Origin: Escherichia phage JS10
DNA: 64,000 nucleotides
Reading direction: 5' to 3' (one strand)
Sequence record: EU863409
Notes under the pieces: generated by a model
What the model was told of the DNA's origin: nothing
Database searches by the model: none
The model's input: only the letters and a program-made list of their open reading frames with translations
Part shown: one piece after another, positions 1,400 through 36,672 of the stretch
Numbering within the stretch: position 1 is the first letter of the stretch
Layout of the letters: every line of letters begins with the position of its first letter
Made by a program: the position numbers and the translations under genes

Positions 1400-3078
1400 T
1401 CTAACACCGTGAATCGCCCAACTTTCTTCATTTGAAGATGTTGGCCATAAGCTTGTGGGTCATGGTCTCGGTGAGAGATAATGAACACGTTCGTATCCTC
1501 AAGGCTATTCAAGATGGTTGCAATGCTCTTAACGCCTTCAGAATCCGTGGCACTATCAAAAACTTCATCAAGAATTAACGTGCTGATATTAACACCTGAT
1601 ACCTTAGAAGCAATATCACGCCATGTAAAAAGAAGTGCGATATCAATACGTGCTTTCTCACCCTGTGAAAATGAAGCATAACTAAAGTCTTCACGTCCAC
1701 GTGATTTAATCGTCTCATTGAATTCTTCGTCTAGGGTAAAGACGTAGTCCGCTTCCATAATCTTCAAATAAGAATTAATCTGCTTATTAAAGATAGGAAT
1801 GTATTTCTTAATAATGGAACCTTTAATACCAGTATCCTTCAACATTTCTGTCAGAATTCCACGATGATATTTTTCCATTACCAAGGACGATTTGGTAGAG
1901 ACGATTTTATCAAGCTCTGCTTGAAGCGCAGCAATCTCTTCGGCATTACTTACGAACTCAGCTGCTGCCTGGTCAATTAATACCTTAACCTTTTTGGCTT
2001 TCTCTACGGCAGTAATGGCTTGCTGCTTATGAGTAGCTATCTGAGATTTAATAGCCAACGCTTTATTGCGTTGTTCGGTTACTTGGTCTTTAATGAGCTT
2101 GAGCTCTTGGTATTGCTCATTAATCTTATCCAAAGATTTTTGAAGCTCAAAGTTTTTATCCTTAATTTTAGTAAGGATATTACCATGCTCTTCTAACCCT
2201 TGCATACACGTAGGGCAGTGACCACCAGTTTCGTATAACTTAACCACCTTTGTAAAGGTTGCCATATCATTTTTGATTGCAAATCCTTTATTACTCAGGT
2301 CACTCATGGAGTCGCTAGGGTCATCATCTACGATAACATTGAGTAATTCATCAGTCAGGGATTCTATGCTCGCCTTCGCAGTCCTGGCTTCTTTAACGAG
2401 CTCATCATACATTAATTGTAGGCGGGCGGCGTTCTCGCCGGATAATTTACGTTGACGTTCTTCGTTGTCATTATAAATTTTAATTTGTTGGGTAATAGAA
2501 TCTTGCTTAACGTCTATTACTTGGATTTGGCTATTAGTCTCACGAATTAAAGATTTGTTCAACTTATCCATATCCGCTAATACAGAAACCTCTAAGAGGT
2601 CTTCGACGAGTTTTCTTCTTGCAGGAGTGGATAGGCCCATAAAAGGGGTATATCCAGCTGTGCCGAGTACGACAATTTGTTTGAAGCTTGCATAGGACAT
2701 TCCGATAAGCTGTTCAAATTCCGCTTGGAAGTCTTTACTGCTGGCAGATTCATCAAGACGTTCACCGTCACAAGAGATTTCAAAAACGTTGGGTTTTTGC
2801 CCGCGTTTGATATAGTATTCTTTGCCATCATATTCCATCCACAGTTCGACCAAAAGGTCTTTCTTGTTACTTGAGTTAATCAACTGCCCTTTCTTAACAT
2901 CACGAAAAGGCTTACCGAACAGAGCAAATGTTACAGCTTCAAGGAATGTTGATTTCCCTGCACCATTTTTACCAGTGACTAAGGTCTTTTGGACCTTATC
3001 AAGTTGGATTGTAATAGGCTGCTGCCCTACCGACATAATATTTTTATACGTTACTTTTTTTAACTTAAAAGTCTTCAT
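1396..3078 (-). CDS. 46: recombination endonuclease ATPase subunit gp46 (SbcC/Rad50-like)
   Basis: Walker A GKNGAGKST near N-terminus, long coiled-coil middle, C-terminal signature/D-loop region; start set to internal ATG (MKTFKLKK) with AAGGA SD giving 560 aa. Confidence 0.9.
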   Translation of the reverse strand: MKTFKLKKVTYKNIMSVGQQPITIQLDKVQKTLVTGKNGAGKSTFLEAVTFALFGKPFRDVKKGQLINSSNKKDLLVELWMEYDGKEYYIKRGQKPNVFEISCDGERLDESASSKDFQAEFEQLIGMSYASFKQIVVLGTAGYTPFMGLSTPARRKLVEDLLEVSVLADMDKLNKSLIRETNSQIQVIDVKQDSITQQIKIYNDNEERQRKLSGENAARLQLMYDELVKEARTAKASIESLTDELLNVIVDDDPSDSMSDLSNKGFAIKNDMATFTKVVKLYETGGHCPTCMQGLEEHGNILTKIKDKNFELQKSLDKINEQYQELKLIKDQVTEQRNKALAIKSQIATHKQQAITAVEKAKKVKVLIDQAAAEFVSNAEEIAALQAELDKIVSTKSSLVMEKYHRGILTEMLKDTGIKGSIIKKYIPIFNKQINSYLKIMEADYVFTLDEEFNETIKSRGREDFSYASFSQGEKARIDIALLFTWRDIASKVSGVNISTLILDEVFDSATDSEGVKSIATILNSLEDTNVFIISHRDHDPQAYGQHLQMKKVGRFTVLE

Positions 3079-3328
3079 CGTTATAAGCATCCTTGATGCA
3101 TGATTCAGCCATATGAATTAATGTTTCTGGAGTATCATCTACCATTACATTAAAGCTAAATTCCACAGCCCAATCGGTAGCAACATAAACTTTAATAAGC
3201 TCGCCGGTATCACGAGTGCTCACGGCTTCAAACCAGAACTTAATTGTACTAGGTTGTCCATCATCATCAATAACTATACAGTCGTGTTCCAGTTCAAGTC
3301 CCGATTTTTTGAATTCATCTAAAGTCAT
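3065..3328 (-). CDS. 46.1-like hypothetical protein
   Basis: 87-aa acidic ORF between genes 47 and 46; ATGA overlap with gene 47 stop. Confidence 0.5.
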   Translation of the reverse strand: MTLDEFKKSGLELEHDCIVIDDDGQPSTIKFWFEAVSTRDTGELIKVYVATDWAVEFSFNVMVDDTPETLIHMAESCIKDAYNDEDF

Positions 3329-4347
3329 CGTGTAACCTCATTATAAAGTTGTGCGGCCATAGTCTTAAGGGCTTTAACGTCTTCTTCAGTGTGGCCATCA
3401 GGAAGGGCGTCGATATAATCATACATCATATCCAAGAGGGATTTAACTTCATCTTCCTCTTCAGAATCATCGATATCAACACTATTATCTACCTTAGACA
3501 CAATACGTAAAGAGTGAACAACCTTTTCAAGCTCTGATTCGAACTTAGTAAGACCGTCATCAATTTTATCGACTATAACACGAACTGCGATATTTGTAAA
3601 ATCTTTGTAATCGATAGTCGCGTTAGGATAATGAATCTTACGGTGCCAACAGGTTTCATTAATGATGAAATCCATTTTATGAGTTTCGGTATCGAAAATC
3701 CAGAAACCACGAGGGTCGTTCTCATCGCCTGCAGTAAGGGTCCATGGAGTACCAATGTACTTGACGTTTGCTGCATCAGAAATAGTATGGAAGTGGCCTG
3801 ACCAAACTTGCTTATACTTTTTAAGGAAATCAGGTTCTAAACCGTGAGATTTCATTCCTTTATAGAAATAGAAACCATTTAATTCCCAATGACCAATACA
3901 GAAATCTGCTGTGGTATTTTTGATATGGTCCATGATATCGGTCGTGTTTTCTTCACACATCCATGGAATCAAATCAATTTCGGTGCCATCAAAGTTAACC
4001 GTAGTAGGTTTTTCAATAACCTTGATATGGTCATATTTACCGAGAACTTCAGAAGCAGCATTAGGAGTCAAGGTATTTTTGTAGTGCATATCATGATTAC
4101 CAACAATGGTATACATGGTAATGCCATTAGCTTTAAGCAAATCAGAGATTTCGCGAGCGAATTCCATACACTTATGGGTAATTGCTTTACGAACGTCAAA
4201 GATATCACCGTATTGAATCCATACGGTAATACCATTTGCTTTAGAATAATCAATAGCGTCTTGGATACCTTGACGTTGGATATTTTGTACCCACACATCA
4301 TCGGCCTTCACTCCAAGGTGCCAGTCACCTGTGTTTAATATTTTCAT
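3325..4347 (-). CDS. 47: recombination nuclease subunit gp47 (Mre11/SbcD-like phosphoesterase)
   Basis: N-terminal MKILNTGDWHLG and GNHD metallophosphatase motifs; start at internal ATG matching T4 gp47 N-terminus. Confidence 0.9.
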   Translation of the reverse strand: MKILNTGDWHLGVKADDVWVQNIQRQGIQDAIDYSKANGITVWIQYGDIFDVRKAITHKCMEFAREISDLLKANGITMYTIVGNHDMHYKNTLTPNAASEVLGKYDHIKVIEKPTTVNFDGTEIDLIPWMCEENTTDIMDHIKNTTADFCIGHWELNGFYFYKGMKSHGLEPDFLKKYKQVWSGHFHTISDAANVKYIGTPWTLTAGDENDPRGFWIFDTETHKMDFIINETCWHRKIHYPNATIDYKDFTNIAVRVIVDKIDDGLTKFESELEKVVHSLRIVSKVDNSVDIDDSEEEDEVKSLLDMMYDYIDALPDGHTEEDVKALKTMAAQLYNEVTR

Positions 4348-7259: not shown

Positions 7260-7391
7260 TTAAATTTTCCAGTTGCCGTTTTCATCAATAAATTTAATCC
7301 AGTCATTTACTGACCACTTAGTCGTATCGCCTTTTGGAGCAACATTTAAGGTGTATAATCCTTGTTTAAAAAGCATACGTTTGATATTCAT
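7260..7391 (-). CDS. hypothetical small protein (43 aa)
   Basis: Internal ATG with GAGGAAAAT SD located 7 nt after stop of upstream gene. Confidence 0.35.
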   Translation of the reverse strand: MNIKRMLFKQGLYTLNVAPKGDTTKWSVNDWIKFIDENGNWKI

Positions 7392-7398
7392 ATTTTCC

Positions 7399-7692
7399 TC
7401 AGCTGTAACGATAGCACTCGTTTGATTTACGTTTTGCAACTCGATGAGAAGTATTGTAATCAGGTTCATCGTCGTTGTAAACATCTTTTTTCAGCTTTCT
7501 CACTTCTTTACGAAGTTGGCGATTCATTTCATTCTTAACTTCAGAATCAACGCCACGCATACGTTTCCACTTGTCAGAACGGAAGATATTTTCATTCAAA
7601 GTTTCTTCCGATACGCCATCAGGTGCTTTACGTCTAGCAATGCAATTAAAATCTCTAGATGGCAATTCTTTACGACGGATAGTTTTACCCAT
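7399..7692 (-). CDS. hypothetical basic protein
   Basis: 97-aa Lys/Arg-rich ORF; GAGGT SD. Confidence 0.5.
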   Translation of the reverse strand: MGKTIRRKELPSRDFNCIARRKAPDGVSEETLNENIFRSDKWKRMRGVDSEVKNEMNRQLRKEVRKLKKDVYNDDEPDYNTSHRVAKRKSNECYRYS

Positions 7693-7694
7693 AG

Positions 7695-7949
7695 TTACCT
7701 CAACAGTTTGTATCCAATAAGGTTTTTAATGTACTGGATGTCTTTGATATCCAAATCCAACTTAAGGTCTTTCAGACGGTCGGCCAGGGTCAAAAAGGTT
7801 ACATGCTTCCAATTCTTCACTGGGCAGCAATAAGTTTTCGGGCCGTTGGCGATTTCAATATTCTTATCAGTGACGGTAAGAAAAATTAGGCGCTCATCAT
7901 CCAGATTAAGGGTGATGACATTTTTCATTGAATGCAATTTCAGGCTCAT
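7695..7949 (-). CDS. hypothetical protein
   Basis: 84-aa ORF; ATGA overlap with upstream small ORF. Confidence 0.5.
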   Translation of the reverse strand: MSLKLHSMKNVITLNLDDERLIFLTVTDKNIEIANGPKTYCCPVKNWKHVTFLTLADRLKDLKLDLDIKDIQYIKNLIGYKLLR

Positions 7950-19989: not shown

Positions 19990-20376
19990 TTATTCTAACG
20001 TTAACAAATACTTAGTCTGGTAAAAGACACCAGTGATGTCGTCCAAAGTCGATTGGATGGCCTTAGGAAGATTTTTGTAGATTTTATCAGACGCTTTAAT
20101 AAGTTCATCAAGAAAATCTATGGGGTCTTTAGGCAGTTCTGAAGCAGATGGTAGTGATGCTTTATATTCTTTGCCACTAAATCCTAAATACTGTTCACTG
20201 AACTGGTCTAGTGGTCCTTGAACTTCTGTATAATAGAAGTCATATGCTTTGTGTCTTGCATAGCTTTTGGTTTCCAAATGGGCTGACTTAAAATAGGCTA
20301 AAGAAACCAACAGCCAACCAATATAAGAATCTACTTCAGTCCCTCGACTAAGTACGAAATCATTGAATTTCATCAT
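19990..20376 (-). CDS. rI.-1-like protein with N-terminal hydrophobic segment (by position)
   Basis: 128 aa, located downstream of rI as in T4. Confidence 0.45.
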   Translation of the reverse strand: MMKFNDFVLSRGTEVDSYIGWLLVSLAYFKSAHLETKSYARHKAYDFYYTEVQGPLDQFSEQYLGFSGKEYKASLPSASELPKDPIDFLDELIKASDKIYKNLPKAIQSTLDDITGVFYQTKYLLTLE

Positions 20377-20653
20377 CTACCTTCATTAGTTTAGCGTATC
20401 GTTCTCCGATAGCCCGACCTTCAATCGAGCAAGACTCTATTGTATTGCAATTTGAAATTTTCCAAGAAGCAGTTACATAAGCCCAGTAGTCTTCGGAGGC
20501 CTTTACACTAGGTTTACTCATTTGCGCATAAACTGGCATCGCACTACTAGCAAAGGCGTCCATCAATTTAGGGTCGGATTTGTTTGCTAGTGAAGATGTT
20601 GGGCTTAAACATCCAATCATAAGGATACAAGCCACTGTACGGAAAATACCCAT
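20360..20653 (-). CDS. rI: lysis-inhibition regulator RI (antiholin) homolog
   Basis: 97 aa; N-terminal signal-anchor-like segment; C-terminal C-x5-C-x-IEGRAIGERYAKLM resembles T4 RI; TATAAATA late promoter upstream. Confidence 0.6.
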   Translation of the reverse strand: MGIFRTVACILMIGCLSPTSSLANKSDPKLMDAFASSAMPVYAQMSKPSVKASEDYWAYVTASWKISNCNTIESCSIEGRAIGERYAKLMKVDDEIQ

Positions 20654-20743: not shown

Positions 20744-20751
20744 TATTTATA
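20744..20751 (-). promoter_or_regulatory. T4-type late promoter (TATAAATA) for rI
   Basis: Exact TATAAATA on minus strand overlapping stop codon of upstream gene. Confidence 0.5.
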
Positions 20752-21025
20752 GCTTTTTAAGCTTACGACAATACGAATAGAACACGTCGTTAAAATTATA
20801 TTCAACCCAATTCCTCTGTATAGGCGAGGTAATGGAAAGCATATAATGCGCTTTAATTAAATCCATCCCATTTTTATTAGGGCATTCTTTATTATTAGCA
20901 TTATACGTCGCTGCTACAACTTCTATCTCTCTTTTGTAAGCCGCATCATCCATGATGGGCGAAAGAACAATATAAGAGATGGCCACAGCGAACGCTAGAA
21001 TTAAAATCTTTGAATTTAGGTCCAT
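20747..21025 (-). CDS. small membrane/secreted protein (rI.1 position)
   Basis: 92 aa with N-terminal hydrophobic segment, between tk and rI. Confidence 0.45.
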   Translation of the reverse strand: MDLNSKILILAFAVAISYIVLSPIMDDAAYKREIEVVAATYNANNKECPNKNGMDLIKAHYMLSITSPIQRNWVEYNFNDVFYSYCRKLKKL

Positions 21026-21032
21026 AGTACCC

Positions 21033-21605
21033 TCAACTCGTTATTTCTATCCAGTGCTTCCTGCACAATGACACGTAAGAATCGTTGCCACCTATAGAAA
21101 CTTGGGCTCCGTCCTTAATTGCGACACCATCTTGGACCCTAGCAGTCATAGTAGCTTTACGGCCGCAATGGCACACACCTTTGTACTCAACGAGTTTATC
21201 TGCCGTAGCGAGTAATTCAGCAGAACCAGGAAACAGTTTACCCTGAAAATCAGTTCTTAGCCCGTAACACATAACTGGAACATTATAATTGTCTACTATC
21301 TTTGCCAGTTGTTTTATCTGTGCAGGTTCTAAGAACTGTGCTTCATCCACAAACACACAGTGGATATCTTTTTGAGATTCAGCCCAACGATAGAACTCGT
21401 ATAGGTCCATATCCGGAGTCACTGCATTAGCCTCTTGACTAATCCCTATACGAGACGAAATGGTATGGCTTGATTCTCTATTGTCTATCGCAGGCTTTAA
21501 AAGGAGCACGCCCATACCACGTTCTTTGTAGTTATGAGCTGCCGTTAGCAATGAAGCGGTCTTACCTGAGTTCATTGCCGCATAATGAAAATAAAGTTGA
21601 GCCAT
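21033..21605 (-). CDS. tk: thymidine kinase
   Basis: 190 aa; P-loop AMNSGKT, zinc-ribbon CHCG...C; matches T4 Tk. Confidence 0.9.
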   Translation of the reverse strand: MAQLYFHYAAMNSGKTASLLTAAHNYKERGMGVLLLKPAIDNRESSHTISSRIGISQEANAVTPDMDLYEFYRWAESQKDIHCVFVDEAQFLEPAQIKQLAKIVDNYNVPVMCYGLRTDFQGKLFPGSAELLATADKLVEYKGVCHCGRKATMTARVQDGVAIKDGAQVSIGGNDSYVSLCRKHWIEITS

Positions 21606-21614
21606 ATTACCTTC

Positions 21615-21800
21615 TTAAAGCGTATTCACATAAGCTATTAATTCGTTTTCTTTCTCATCAAACCGATCAGCAAATTCTTCTTGCTGTTCGGGAGATAGCG
21701 GGCCATATTCATCGTAAAAAGCGTTTGCTTCTGTATGCTCATCCAAAAGCTCATGGATAAGCTCAAACAATCTACTTTTCTGACTAATACTTAAACTCAT
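21615..21800 (-). CDS. hypothetical acidic protein
   Basis: 61-aa ORF. Confidence 0.4.
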   Translation of the reverse strand: MSLSISQKSRLFELIHELLDEHTEANAFYDEYGPLSPEQQEEFADRFDEKENELIAYVNTL

Positions 21801-22024
21801 TTAGGTTCACCATATCGCACAAATTTAGGATGTTCGCAATAACCGGAATGAAAACCTTCACCCTTATGATTAGAACATCCTTTATTAGAACAGTACCACC
21901 AGTAATCAAATTCACATTCCATTTCATCGTTGCATAAAGCTGCGATTACCGGCCATTCACATTTTTCGCATTTAGCAGTTTTAAGAATTCGGGCTTGGCT
22001 CATAACCATTGCACCTTTAAGCAA
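21797..22024 (-). CDS. Cys-rich zinc-binding-like protein
   Basis: 75 aa with multiple CxxC pairs. Confidence 0.45.
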   Translation of the reverse strand: MLKGAMVMSQARILKTAKCEKCEWPVIAALCNDEMECEFDYWWYCSNKGCSNHKGEGFHSGYCEHPKFVRYGEPK

Positions 22025-22212
22025 TATTCTTCTACATGCTGTTTACGTTTATTTTTATCTATAAAAGTATATTCAACGTATTCACCAATATACCATTTAT
22101 CGGTGTTATGCTGACTTTTTATAGGGCATTTAGTTACTCGGGTTTCGGTCCAGCGCCGAATAATTTCCGCTTTGTTTTTAGGGTCAAACGGATGCGGATA
22201 ATGGGCTTTCAT
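22000..22212 (-). CDS. hypothetical protein
   Basis: 70-aa ORF overlapping neighbours; start uncertain. Confidence 0.35.
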   Translation of the reverse strand: MKAHYPHPFDPKNKAEIIRRWTETRVTKCPIKSQHNTDKWYIGEYVEYTFIDKNKRKQHVEEYCLKVQWL

Positions 22213-22651
22213 AATCTACCACCACTAAATTAACATCAGGAGTAAACAAATTAATCAATTGATAAACCTTGTCCCAATCACCACCAGCAATACCACAACC
22301 AATGCGAGGAATATAAATTCTTGGTTTAAACAAAAGACCTTTTGCTTGTTGATTTAATTCTATCATACAGTTTACTAAAGCACCATAATCAAGATTAGGG
22401 CCTGGTTCGTATTGGGTGTATAAATTATAGCAAATTTGTCCATTATTACCTGTGGCTTGGGTATATGTTCCAAGTTTTGCTATATCACCTAAATAAGTGG
22501 TTTTATCGATAGCAAGAATAGGTGGATAAGCCTTAGCCAATTGTCCAGCTACACCTGAACCCATTGTGTGAAAGCAGTTACACCCGTGTGCAACATTATT
22601 GCCTTGAAGAAACAGGGCGACGATATCGCCCTTAATATAATCAATAATCAT
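22184..22651 (-). CDS. macro-domain protein (ADP-ribose binding/processing)
   Basis: 155 aa; N-terminal GDIV...GCNCF and GSGVAGQ glycine-rich motifs typical of macro domains. Confidence 0.65.
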   Translation of the reverse strand: MIIDYIKGDIVALFLQGNNVAHGCNCFHTMGSGVAGQLAKAYPPILAIDKTTYLGDIAKLGTYTQATGNNGQICYNLYTQYEPGPNLDYGALVNCMIELNQQAKGLLFKPRIYIPRIGCGIAGGDWDKVYQLINLFTPDVNLVVVDYESPLSASV

Positions 22652-23004
22652 TTAGAGTTTAGCCCTCGGTTGTAAGAGTCAACGAGTCTGTCTACCATAG
22701 ACGCGCACATTTCTTTGTACTTTTTATCAGATGGAACACATTCAGTAACGTTTAGACGTTGCTCGTATCTTTTAGAAAGAGTTTTCTCTTTCATTCGGCG
22801 ATGCTCGACGTCGTTCTGTCCATCTTTAAAAGCAGCTGTTATTTTTGAACTGAATTCAATAACACATTCAGTATTACTCGGATGACAATAATCTTTTGCT
22901 GTACGGGTGGCATACTCGACAATTGAATTATTTGTATCATCAACCTGTGATGCTAATACTCCCGGAGCAATCAACATAAGCGCTATAGTCATCTGTTTAA
23001 TCAT
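22648..23004 (-). CDS. secreted protein with signal peptide (vs position)
   Basis: 118 aa; N-terminal signal peptide ending ...GVLASQ; paired Cys. Confidence 0.5.
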   Translation of the reverse strand: MIKQMTIALMLIAPGVLASQVDDTNNSIVEYATRTAKDYCHPSNTECVIEFSSKITAAFKDGQNDVEHRRMKEKTLSKRYEQRLNVTECVPSDKKYKEMCASMVDRLVDSYNRGLNSK

Positions 23005-23544
23005 TTAATATACCGCCTCAAACATCTTTTTAGATTTTAGGTAATTGGCCTTTTCTAGAACTTCGGAAGCATATTTACTGCCTGCTTTGACATTCCAGCC
23101 CGCATTATAAGAAGCAATCGCTTTTCTCAGGTCACCTTTGTGAACATCAATCCAATAAGACAGTTCAATGTAGGCCCAAGAGGCACTGTTCTGTCGTTTT
23201 TGGACCATACGGATTATTTCTTTGTCTGTCATCTTCCAACCTACCTGTTTAACACGACTTCTTAACGTAGGCAAGTAATTTTGGAACATGCCATAAGCAT
23301 GGTGCTTATCTTTATTTAAACCCTGATTAATTCCGGCGGATGATTCTTGCCATAGTAATCCGGCCATGATATATCCTAATCCTTTTTGATTAGGGTTTTC
23401 TTTGAACTTTCCCGACTTTTGGTATTGTTCACCGAAAGCATACGCATAATGTAAATTATCGAGTTGTTCATTACTGAAAGTAGGCTCTACGCTATAGGCA
23501 GACATACTAACTGTCAATAGTAAAGTGGCTAATACTTTTTTCAT
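23005..23544 (-). CDS. periplasmic lytic-transglycosylase-like protein
   Basis: 179 aa; signal peptide; LLWQESS...AYGMFQ resembles SLT catalytic region. Confidence 0.55.
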   Translation of the reverse strand: MKKVLATLLLTVSMSAYSVEPTFSNEQLDNLHYAYAFGEQYQKSGKFKENPNQKGLGYIMAGLLWQESSAGINQGLNKDKHHAYGMFQNYLPTLRSRVKQVGWKMTDKEIIRMVQKRQNSASWAYIELSYWIDVHKGDLRKAIASYNAGWNVKAGSKYASEVLEKANYLKSKKMFEAVY

Positions 23545-23556
23545 GAGACCTCATTA

Positions 23557-24015
23557 TTAAAGATAGATTACTTTCGTGCTGGTTTTACCTTCTAAACGTT
23601 TAGAGTTAACAAATGCCATACGACATTTTAATGAATACCCTTTATCAGGATGTTTACGATCTACGGTCATACCCAACCATAAGGTTTTATCGGTAATCTC
23701 GAGACGCAGTGGACGATACACTTTACCTGGGACAATTTCAGATTCTACGTCAGGAAGAGGCTCCTGGATTAAAAATTCATGGATTTCTTTAACATGATTG
23801 TGGAGCTTCTTGAACAAAGAGAAAACATATTTTTCGTCAATTTCACGTTGGATAGCACGGTCCAACAAGTGATTAGAGTACTTAATAAAGAAAGCTGGGA
23901 CACCGCTCTTAATGGCGGCTTTTTTGATGGACGCGTTAAGTTCACGAAATTCGGTTTCGAACTGACGACGTAATTTGTTGCGGCGGATGAATACTTCTGA
24001 ATTAATTTCTGACAT
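23557..24015 (-). CDS. regB: RegB site-specific endoribonuclease
   Basis: 152 aa resembling T4 RegB (FIRRNKLRR, LLDRAIQREIDE); downstream of canonical PeSL-like cassette. Confidence 0.8.
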   Translation of the reverse strand: MSEINSEVFIRRNKLRRQFETEFRELNASIKKAAIKSGVPAFFIKYSNHLLDRAIQREIDEKYVFSLFKKLHNHVKEIHEFLIQEPLPDVESEIVPGKVYRPLRLEITDKTLWLGMTVDRKHPDKGYSLKCRMAFVNSKRLEGKTSTKVIYL

Positions 24016-24072
24016 TTTGTAATCTCCTGTAGTTGATAGGTCTATAGTACCACGTCTACAGGAGATGTAAAC
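24016..24072 (-). promoter_or_regulatory. PeSL-like promoter-stem-loop cassette (upstream of regB)
   Basis: -35 GTTTAC, 17-bp spacer, -10 TACTAT; perfect 9-bp arms CTCCTGTAG / CTACAGGAG (24024-24032 / 24056-24064). Confidence 0.6.
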
Positions 24073-24077
24073 TGCTT

Positions 24078-24356
24078 TTAGTATTTTTCTTCAGGTTGGA
24101 AAACGGAACGACAGGCCCACATGGATGCTTCTTTCAAGCGTTCGATTGCCGTACGAATCTGGGCGAGACGTTCATGAGTGAGGTCGAATTCTTCATCACT
24201 CATTTTATCAACACCCGAGCATGTAAAGGCTTCAACATATTCTTCTTCTAGTGCTTTAAAGATTAAGCCTAATCGAACTTCAGCATCTTTAATGGCATTC
24301 ACTTTACTGATTTTATCGTCGGTATGTGGCTTGTAACCTTTGATATCTTCAATCAT
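24078..24356 (-). CDS. hypothetical protein (vs.3-vs.8 region)
   Basis: 92-aa ORF; ATGA-coupled chain. Confidence 0.45.
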   Translation of the reverse strand: MIEDIKGYKPHTDDKISKVNAIKDAEVRLGLIFKALEEEYVEAFTCSGVDKMSDEEFDLTHERLAQIRTAIERLKEASMWACRSVFQPEEKY

Positions 24357-24571
24357 TTCACTTCCTCATCAGATGCAATATCATATTCTACAAAACGAAG
24401 GCCGTCATATCCACCACTAACAGAGATATACGTAGTCGGGTAAACAGTTTCTTTACCATTCCATTGGCCACCGTCCCAACATTCCATAAAGCCTTGTTCG
24501 CCCTGTTCGTGGAACCAGTCAACAAACATCTTCAGAGCTTCATCAGAGCCTTCAATTGTCAATTTAGACAT
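24353..24571 (-). CDS. hypothetical protein
   Basis: 72-aa ORF. Confidence 0.45.
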   Translation of the reverse strand: MSKLTIEGSDEALKMFVDWFHEQGEQGFMECWDGGQWNGKETVYPTTYISVSGGYDGLRFVEYDIASDEEVK

Positions 24572-24860
24572 ATTTTTTCCAGTCAGAAATCATATGAATC
24601 TCTTGGTCATACGTCAAGAGACTACGAGTTATAATACCCTTACAAGGCCCTGAGATGAACTCGAGGGTGAAGTAAGGAACCTGTTTCATTAATCGGATAC
24701 TAGGAGCGTGGCATCTAAAACGAGAGCCCTTAAAGGGCCCTGACATGAATACATATTCTAATGGATAGAAATAAGCATGCTCAAAGTTTGTAGTAAGGTC
24801 CTCTCTTCGAACCTTACGTGAGAAATAACAGAACTCAAAAAGTTCTTCATCGGTCATCAT
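24564..24860 (-). CDS. hypothetical protein
   Basis: 98-aa ORF with internal duplicated SGP(F/C)KG segment. Confidence 0.45.
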   Translation of the reverse strand: MMTDEELFEFCYFSRKVRREDLTTNFEHAYFYPLEYVFMSGPFKGSRFRCHAPSIRLMKQVPYFTLEFISGPCKGIITRSLLTYDQEIHMISDWKKYV

Positions 24861-36439: not shown

Positions 36440-36515
36440 TGGTCGAGACAGTAGGGATCGAACCTACGACCTACGGTTTAGAAGACCGTTGCTCTTCCTT
36501 CTGAGCTATGCCTCG
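36440..36515 (-). tRNA. tRNA-Arg (anticodon UCU)
   Basis: 76-nt cloverleaf: anticodon stem ACGGT/ACCGT with loop CTTCTAA, T-arm GTAGG-TTCGATC-CCTAC, encoded CCA; unusual C1-G72 acceptor start. Confidence 0.65.
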
Positions 36516-36519
36516 TATT

Positions 36520-36594
36520 TGGCGGACATGCATGGATTCGAACCATGGACCAATTGATTAACAGTCAACTGCTCTACCACTGAGCTACACATCC
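36520..36594 (-). tRNA. tRNA-Asn (anticodon GUU)
   Basis: 75-nt cloverleaf: D-arm TAGCTCAGTGGTAGAGC, anticodon loop CTGTTAA, T-arm CATGG-TTCGAAT-CCATG, encoded CCA. Confidence 0.75.
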
Positions 36595-36598
36595 AAAT

Positions 36599-36672
36599 TG
36601 GTGGCCCTGGGTGGAATCGAACCACCATCCAGCGATTATGAGTCGCTCGCTTGACCGTCCAGCTACAGGGCC
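36599..36672 (-). tRNA. tRNA-Met/Ile2 (anticodon CAU)
   Basis: 74-nt cloverleaf: acceptor GGCCCTG/CAGGGCC, anticodon stem AGCGA/TCGCT with loop CTCATAA, T-arm GGTGG-TTCGATT-CCACC, encoded CCA. Confidence 0.75.

Follow-up and report, generated by a model that had tools for sequence, protein, structure and literature searches.

A stand-alone TARG1-like macrodomain at the tk.4 (adfM) locus of Escherichia phage JS10

The tk to regB region of JS10

The window analysed here is a single stretch of 64,000 nucleotides (64 kb) of Escherichia phage JS10 DNA. Between vs and tk.3, its minus strand carries an ORF with an ATG start, and the encoded protein of 155 residues begins with MIIDYIKGDIVALFLQGNNVAHGCNCFHTMGSGVAGQ (Table 1). 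The 3.1 kb around this ORF shares 98% identity with the Escherichia phages UP19, Ec2-ASingh and JS98, of which JS98 is the type of the genus Dhakavirus in the Tevenvirinae; the window is that of a JS98-like (Dhakavirus) T-even phage. The neighboring genes were named from profile searches together with the annotations of JS98 and T4, and the gene order tk-tk.1-tk.2-tk.3-tk.4-vs-vs.1-regB is identical to that of T4.

The product can be aligned with T4 Tk.4 over its full 155 residues with 54% identity (E = 2e-64), and the T4 protein is also 155 residues long. The two genes share their neighbors (tk.3 downstream and vs upstream) and the two proteins share the invariant active-site residues. By sequence and gene position, the ORF is orthologous to T4 tk.4 (adfM), of which it represents the Dhakavirus JS98-type version; the first-pass annotation had not recognized it as this named gene. 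The two proteins differ in a central segment (residues ~38-74), in which the JS10 protein is four residues shorter, and in a glycine-rich loop near the C-terminus (loop 2), where Ala119, Gly122, and Lys123 of T4 are replaced by Cys, Ala, and Gly; the C-terminus of the JS10 protein is four residues longer in the alignment. In public records, this gene is labeled "phosphatase; contains A1pp phosphatase motif", "macro domain protein", or "Poa1p-like".

Table 1. Genes and sequence features of the tk to regB region, in positions of the 64-kb window
Feature	Position	Strand	Basis or remark
rI.-1	19990-20376
rI	20360-20653
ORF at rI.1 position	20747-21025
tk	21033-21605
tk.1	21615-21800
tk.2	21797-22024	-	or start at 22003 with ATG
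tk.3	22000-22212
tk.4 (adfM orthologue) CDS, 155 aa, single macro domain	22184-22651	-	ORF list, Pfam Macro, identity to T4 Tk.4, AF2
Loop 2/phosphate-binding loop, P115-R-I-G118-C-G120-I-A122-G-G-D-W126	22274-22309	-	conservation, alignments
Codons T79-Q80	22412-22417	-	Gln at catalytic Lys position of TARG1 (K84) and DarG (K80); equivalent to SCO6735 Gln85
Divergent patch inside tk.4, residues ~38-74	22430-22586	-	alignment of JS10 with JS98
Loop 1/catalytic loop, H22-G-C-N25-C-F-H-T-M-G-S-G-V-A35	22547-22588	-	conservation, alignments
Codons G8-D9	22625-22630	-	G in 113/118, D/N in 116/118 homologues; aligns with GD of TARG1, BT1257, and PhiKZ gp104
ATGA, overlap of vs stop (TGA) and tk.4 start (ATG)	22648-22651	-	read from sequence
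Shine-Dalgarno-like GAGGG, 11 nt upstream of tk.4 ATG, within the end of vs	22663-22667	-	from sequence; putative function
vs	22648-23004	-
vs.1	23005-23544	-
regB	23557-24015

The overlap of the vs stop codon with the tk.4 start codon suggests that translation of the two genes is coupled. The first-pass annotation, made from the sequence of the window, had placed the gene in a chain of ATGA-coupled genes between tk and regB. This description holds for three junctions (vs/tk.4, tk.3/tk.2, and tk.2/tk.1) but not for the others: the overlap of tk.4 with tk.3 is 29 nt long, vs.1 and vs abut as TAAATG, and short spacers separate regB from vs.1 and tk.1 from tk. The tk.4/tk.3 overlap (22184-22212, minus strand) is only 4 nt long in T4. 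The tk.2 gene probably starts at the ATG at 22003, whose overlap with the tk.3 stop codon reads ATGA, and not at the upstream TTG of the ORF list; within its product, residues 8-75 are covered by PF23895, which Pfam names "Phage zinc binding domain". A promoter and terminator scan of 20900-24700 returned 12 promoter-like sites (shuffled sequences gave an expectation of 11.0), so the scan is uninformative and we make no claim on the timing of expression. In tRNA and Rfam scans of the whole window, three tRNA genes (Arg-tct, Asn-gtt, and Met-cat; 36440-36672, minus strand), each confirmed by Rfam and unrelated to tk.4, were the only hits.

Two genes upstream of tk.4 had been described as encoding a signal-peptide protein and an SLT-like protein. 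The former is Vs, annotated as "valyl-tRNA synthetase modifier", which indeed has a cleavable signal-peptide-like N-terminus (MIKQMTIALMLIAPGVLA/SQ in JS10 and MTKILVLCIGLISFSASASA/DT in T4, the latter encoded at 7387-7734 on the minus strand of locus L001; the slash marks the putative cleavage site). The JS10 and T4 proteins contain four cysteines each, which by eye seem to correspond. These features suggest that Vs is exported and disulfide-bonded, an odd fit to a role on a cytoplasmic synthetase. In T4 grown in minimal medium, vs was the most needed gene according to the HIDEN-SEQ preprint (10.1101/2025.11.20.689424). The latter protein is Vs.1 (179 residues), whose N-terminus is likewise signal-peptide-like, but the match to SLT transglycosylases (residues 61-153) stays below the Pfam threshold (17.1 vs 21.3 bits). 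Vs.1 belongs to PHROG 600, which is listed as of unknown function.

Fold, class and active site of Tk.4

The macro-domain match of JS10 Tk.4 is far beyond chance. Residues 22-132 score 32.8 bits (E = 7.5e-8) on Pfam Macro (PF01661), for which the gathering cut-off is 22, and cover profile positions 2-117 of 118; the protein matches PHROG 335 with an E-value of 1.6e-67; homologues are present in 2,737 phage records. The AF2 model (pLDDT of 94.7) displays the three-layer alpha/beta/alpha fold of macrodomains, and the top match in the Foldseek search is human TARG1/OARD1 (PDB 4J5S) with a TM-score of 0.75-0.77; in the profile alignment, TARG1 is matched with an E-value of 6e-18. The nearest structural neighbors are TARG1, DarG, SCO6735/BT1257, and Poa1p, not the MacroD, PARG, or viral nsp3 types. 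The glycine-rich motifs from which the first-pass annotation had recognized a macro domain are all present (GDIV at residues 8-11, GCNCF at 23-27, and GSGVAGQ at 31-37), and the fold and the ADP-ribose-binding loops are thus borne out by the profile match, the predicted structure, and the search for similar folds, with the class now specified as TARG1-like. The tk.4 product belongs to the TARG1-like (ALC1-like) macrodomains and is of the stand-alone kind; no second macro gene was found in the 64-kb window.

In the defense libraries, the sole NCBIfam match and the sole PADLOC match are to DarG (PDB 5M3I, 5M3E, 7OMU), each to its macro part alone. The score against the NCBIfam DarG family (NF048014) is 20.8 bits vs a cut-off of 250, and the match to the PADLOC profile (E = 4.2e-6) covers just positions 3-143 of 329. 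JS10 Tk.4 ends after the macro domain and lacks the C-terminal DarT-binding domain of DarG, and no DarT gene was found in the window by tblastn with a single DarT2 query, a search of limited sensitivity. Degradation of Thoeris or other immune signals was considered as the main reading and rejected, ThsA macro being only a distant match.

Conservation of the active site was counted over 118 homologues. In loop 1, His22, Gly23, and Asn25 are found in 116 of them, while Gly33 and Ala35 are invariant; His22 and Asn25 align with His24 and Asn27 of SCO6735, and Asn25 also with Asn23 of PhiKZ AdfM. Gln80 is likewise present in all 118 (NLYTQ in the profile alignment, vs YLITK(84) in TARG1 and NMIGQ in BT1257). 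In loop 2, Gly118, Gly120, and Trp126 are conserved in 116 of the 118, the two glycines aligning with Gly126 and Gly128 of SCO6735, and GCGIA(122) aligns with GCGLD(125) of TARG1, so that Ala122 stands in place of Asp125. Asp9 is presumably the Asp at the adenine-contact position of macrodomains. All of the predicted ADP-ribose-binding elements (G8-D9, N25-x5-GSGVA, and PRIGCGIAGG) are conserved in the family. We regard it as nearly certain that JS10 Tk.4 is a catalytically competent macrodomain that processes ADP-ribose.

Because the TARG1 dyad Lys84/Asp125 corresponds to Gln80/Ala122, the Tk.4 family is without both of its residues, and the catalytic Lys80 of DarG is also replaced by Gln80. 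The active site is instead of the type found in SCO6735 of Streptomyces coelicolor (PDB 5E3B) and BT1257 of Bacteroides (PDB 2FG1/2AFC), stand-alone ALC1-like macrodomains with approximately 25-29% identity to JS10 Tk.4. In this subclass, a Gln takes the place of the catalytic Lys and an Asn is conserved, and JS10 Tk.4 has both. Asn27, Gln85, and Gly128 of SCO6735 are equivalent to Asn25, Gln80, and Gly120, respectively. The activity of SCO6735 is abolished in the Q85A variant, nearly abolished in N27S because Asn27 holds Gln85 in position, and lowered in G128E (PMC9411070). The likeness to SCO6735 (Gln type) rather than DarG (Lys type) therefore predicts which mutants of Tk.4 would be inactive, and this Gln-type active site may be a small addition to what is known.

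The resemblance to the subclass does not extend to the region following the Gln. The extended mobile loop with lysines (Lys89 and Lys94) in SCO6735/BT1257 is not shared by JS10 Tk.4, which has no Lys in residues 81-90, and, compared with the Tk.4 profile, BT1257 has six additional residues behind the Gln, leaving a shorter loop in Tk.4. The DNA-contacting Lys34 and Lys89 of SCO6735 have no counterpart, Lys34 being replaced by Ser32, and Val25 of SCO6735 (Val/Ile25) corresponds to Gly23. SCO6735 also differs in being a cellular protein and not a phage counter-defense factor.

Relatives, origin and the divergent central patch

PhiKZ gp104, also named AdfM, is another single macrodomain of a phage (a chimallivirus) acting against DarTG2, with the conserved Asn23 equivalent to Asn25 of JS10 Tk.4. 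It removes the DarT2 mark from DNA in vitro and N23A lowers its activity (PMC13309987). The two proteins share 21% identity (hhalign probability of 96%), and gp104 keeps the lysine of the DarG-type "PTK" motif. We therefore rejected an identity of Tk.4 with PhiKZ AdfM on the grounds of the low sequence identity and the other type of catalytic residue. The two "AdfM" proteins thus appear as separate lineages in one class, probably acquired independently. In addition, gp104 is imported into the phage nucleus, whereas T-even phages have no nucleus.

Other phage anti-DarT factors are of different kinds. T4 AdfN (gene 30.3) is likewise an orphan antitoxin-like hydrolase of T-even phages directed against DarT, but it has a NADAR fold, is specific for the guanine-ADPr made by DarT1, and has no effect on DarTG2. 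AdfA and AdfB also counteract DarT. AdfB of ICP1 was dismissed as a relative of Tk.4, as it is a 77-residue protein that binds DarT and is not a macrodomain.

Bacterial relatives with 33-43% identity, carrying HGCNC and GCGIAGGDW, are common in bacterial genomes, among them those of Rhodobacteraceae, Undibacterium, Desulfobacterales, and Verrucomicrobia. A tblastn search for DarT2 within 4 kb of 80 bacterial loci returned nothing below E = 2, a result of limited sensitivity obtained with a single P. aeruginosa DarT2 query, and clustering of the neighboring ORFs revealed no shared partner apart from lineage-specific synteny and an ARH-like gene. With no DarT beside the bacterial relatives, genomic context provides no independent support for a link to DarT. 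An origin of the Tk.4 lineage by co-option from a DarTG operon is accordingly not supported, within the limited sensitivity of that one query. Given the lack of DarT2 and of a common neighbor, the lineage resembles stand-alone cellular macrodomains of the SCO6735 kind and not a captured DarTG antitoxin.

The ARH-like gene belongs to an ORF cluster found beside the Tk.4-like gene in six bacterial loci, including L012, L027, L033, L053, and L076 (Undibacterium). The member in L012 (approximately 3057-3995) encodes 312 residues, with an N-terminus resembling ARH/DraG-type ADP-ribosylglycohydrolases by eye. If this likeness were confirmed, the two genes would form a two-enzyme module for ADP-ribose removal.

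Between JS10 and JS98, the nucleotide identity over the 3.1 kb is 92-100% in all but five 60-nt intervals, four of which are within tk.4. A patch in the middle of tk.4 is the only strongly divergent stretch, with an identity of 43-47% at 22430-22526 and 83% at 22527-22586, including indels; two 60-nt intervals outside it also fall below 92%, both at 83%. At the protein level, Tk.4 of JS10 and Tk.4 of JS98 are 77% identical with two indels, and the differences are concentrated in residues ~38-74, which comprise the second helix, a loop, and a beta-hairpin and are among the high-entropy segments across the family. The patch looks like a segment that has been swapped within tk.4.

Proposed role against DarTG2

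The function of the T4 orthologue has been addressed by genetics. When T4 transposon libraries were grown on a DarTG2 host, tk.4 was the single significant hit, and a clean tk.4 knockout was sensitised to DarTG2, upon which the gene was renamed adfM for anti-DarT factor macrodomain; the authors of this 2025 HIDEN-SEQ preprint consider that enzymatic removal of ADP-ribose from DNA by T4 Tk.4 "seems likely" (10.1101/2025.11.20.689424). T2 and T4 lacking adfN, as well as T4 lacking both adfA and adfN, are still resistant to DarTG2, which predicts a further factor, and thymidine is not a target of the NADAR-type AdfN (PMC11825919). The proposal of the first-pass annotation that a phage macrodomain could reverse an ADP-ribosylation-based defense matches these genetics, in which tk.4/adfM is needed against DarTG2 (10.1101/2025.11.20.689424). 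Protection against DarTG2 is known for the T4 gene alone, from the transposon screen and the knockout. Gene, domain, and role are thus already on record in the literature and databases, as an A1pp/macro protein for years and as the anti-DarTG2 adfM of T4 since late 2025.

The reading that we favor, with a probability of roughly three in four, is that JS10 Tk.4 is an orphan antitoxin-like enzyme that erases the thymidine-ADPr made by DarT2 from single-stranded phage DNA. The protein would be made as part of the gene string that runs from regB to tk, with coupling to vs. After infection, DarT2 of a host DarTG2 system would attach ADP-ribose to the thymidines of TNTC motifs in single strands of phage DNA, blocking replication; the two glycine-rich loops of Tk.4 would then bind the ADP-ribose on the DNA, and hydrolysis of the thymidine-ribose bond would release free ADP-ribose and restore the template, allowing replication to proceed. 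In the active site, Gln80, held by Asn25, would position the distal ribose while water does the chemistry. By analogy, catalysis probably follows the lysine-free route of SCO6735, unlike the Lys-dependent DarG and TARG1. SCO6735 strips ADP-ribose off DNA thymidines and can rescue E. coli cells exposed to DarT (PMC9411070). That the JS10 allele has the same activity and target as T4 Tk.4 is inferred, with the 54% identity and the divergent central patch as caveats. Also weighing against this reading are the missing counterparts of Lys34, Lys89, and the longer mobile loop of SCO6735, Gly23 in place of its Val25, the likeness of the N-terminal motif to that of Poa1p, and the preprint status of the key genetic work.

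The favored reading names a single substrate. TARG1, DarG, and SCO6735 all cleave both T-ADPr on DNA and U-ADPr on RNA, and the Tk.4 family could be a broad, lysine-free, Gln-centered eraser acting on T-ADPr in DNA, U-ADPr in RNA, and perhaps protein, with the swapped patch marking an ongoing arms race. The Gln-type center is already backed by sequence, whereas the broad substrate range and the arms race are speculation, and we regard this extended version as doubtful. If the arms race were real, the patch might serve, for example, the escape from a host sensor or inhibitor of the enzyme, or the retargeting to other ADP-ribosyltransferases.

A role mainly in protein de-ADP-ribosylation, by which Tk.4 would reverse the action of a host transferase on phage proteins or tune the phage's own Alt, ModA, and ModB modifications, is unlikely. 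TARG1 and SCO6735 do hydrolyze protein-linked ADP-ribose too, and T-even phages encode ADP-ribosyltransferases, among which Alt has a role in defense evasion (10.1101/2025.11.20.689424). The dyad with which TARG1 acts on the acidic-residue linkage, Lys84/Asp125, is nevertheless replaced in JS10 Tk.4. Alt, ModA, and ModB act on arginine, and no macrodomain is known to cleave such a bond, which counts against the protein reading. Moreover, the sole recorded phenotype of tk.4 is against a DNA-modifying toxin (10.1101/2025.11.20.689424). Tk.4 may act on proteins as a side activity.

Tk.4 might instead erase ADP-ribose from RNA bases such as uracil, countering an RNA-targeting ADP-ribosyltransferase defense, with DNA repair being secondary. 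Cleavage of U-ADPr on single-stranded RNA by TARG1, DarG, and especially SCO6735 agrees with this role, but CmdTAC, which ADP-ribosylates mRNA, defends strongly against T4 despite tk.4, and no bacterial uracil-ADP-ribosylating defense was identified in the literature surveyed. As the DarTG2 phenotype is accounted for by DNA, we find the RNA version quite unlikely.

The legacy "A1pp phosphatase" label implies an ADP-ribose-1''-phosphate phosphatase like yeast Poa1p, which would clear a by-product of RNA 2'-phosphate removal. The N-terminal HxCNC motif (HGCNC in JS10 Tk.4) is as near to that of Poa1p (HSCNC) as to those of the DNA hydrolases. Among the studied residues of Poa1p, His23 is conserved as His22, while Ser30 and Phe152 correspond to Thr29 and Ala122, and loop 2 is unlike that of Poa1p (PQINSGIFG, with the studied Phe152, vs PRIGCGIAG). 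Weak Appr1p phosphatase activity is seen in vitro with many macrodomains without reflecting their biological role. The label itself is a motif-based transfer, and a phosphatase would leave the DarTG2-specific phenotype of T4 unexplained (10.1101/2025.11.20.689424), making this assignment very unlikely. Tk.4 might also bind without catalysis, either sequestering immune signals derived from ADP-ribose or blocking DarT2 itself. This is highly improbable, as the catalytic residues are invariant and Tk.4 lacks the toxin-binding domain of DarG, even though reader-only macrodomains exist and the phage protein AdfB binds DarT to counter it.

Removal of ADP-ribose from DNA by Tk.4 would mean that the core accessory region of T-even phages carries a dedicated eraser of DNA ADP-ribosylation that extends to Dhakavirus with its active-site residues intact. 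It would fit the stacking of several anti-DarT factors (AdfA, AdfN, and AdfM) by T-even phages. The Gln-type site and the swappable central segment may be useful to those working on the enzyme, and neither changes the overall picture.

Other phage homologues, with 186-260 residues, are extended at the N- or C-terminus by sequence that matches no Pfam family. In a metagenomic protein of 247 residues (P0116), a Tk.4-like macrodomain is fused to a C-terminal NUDIX domain (PF00293, 50 bits). Such a fusion would release and then hydrolyze ADP-ribose, which fits free ADP-ribose as the product of the macrodomain.
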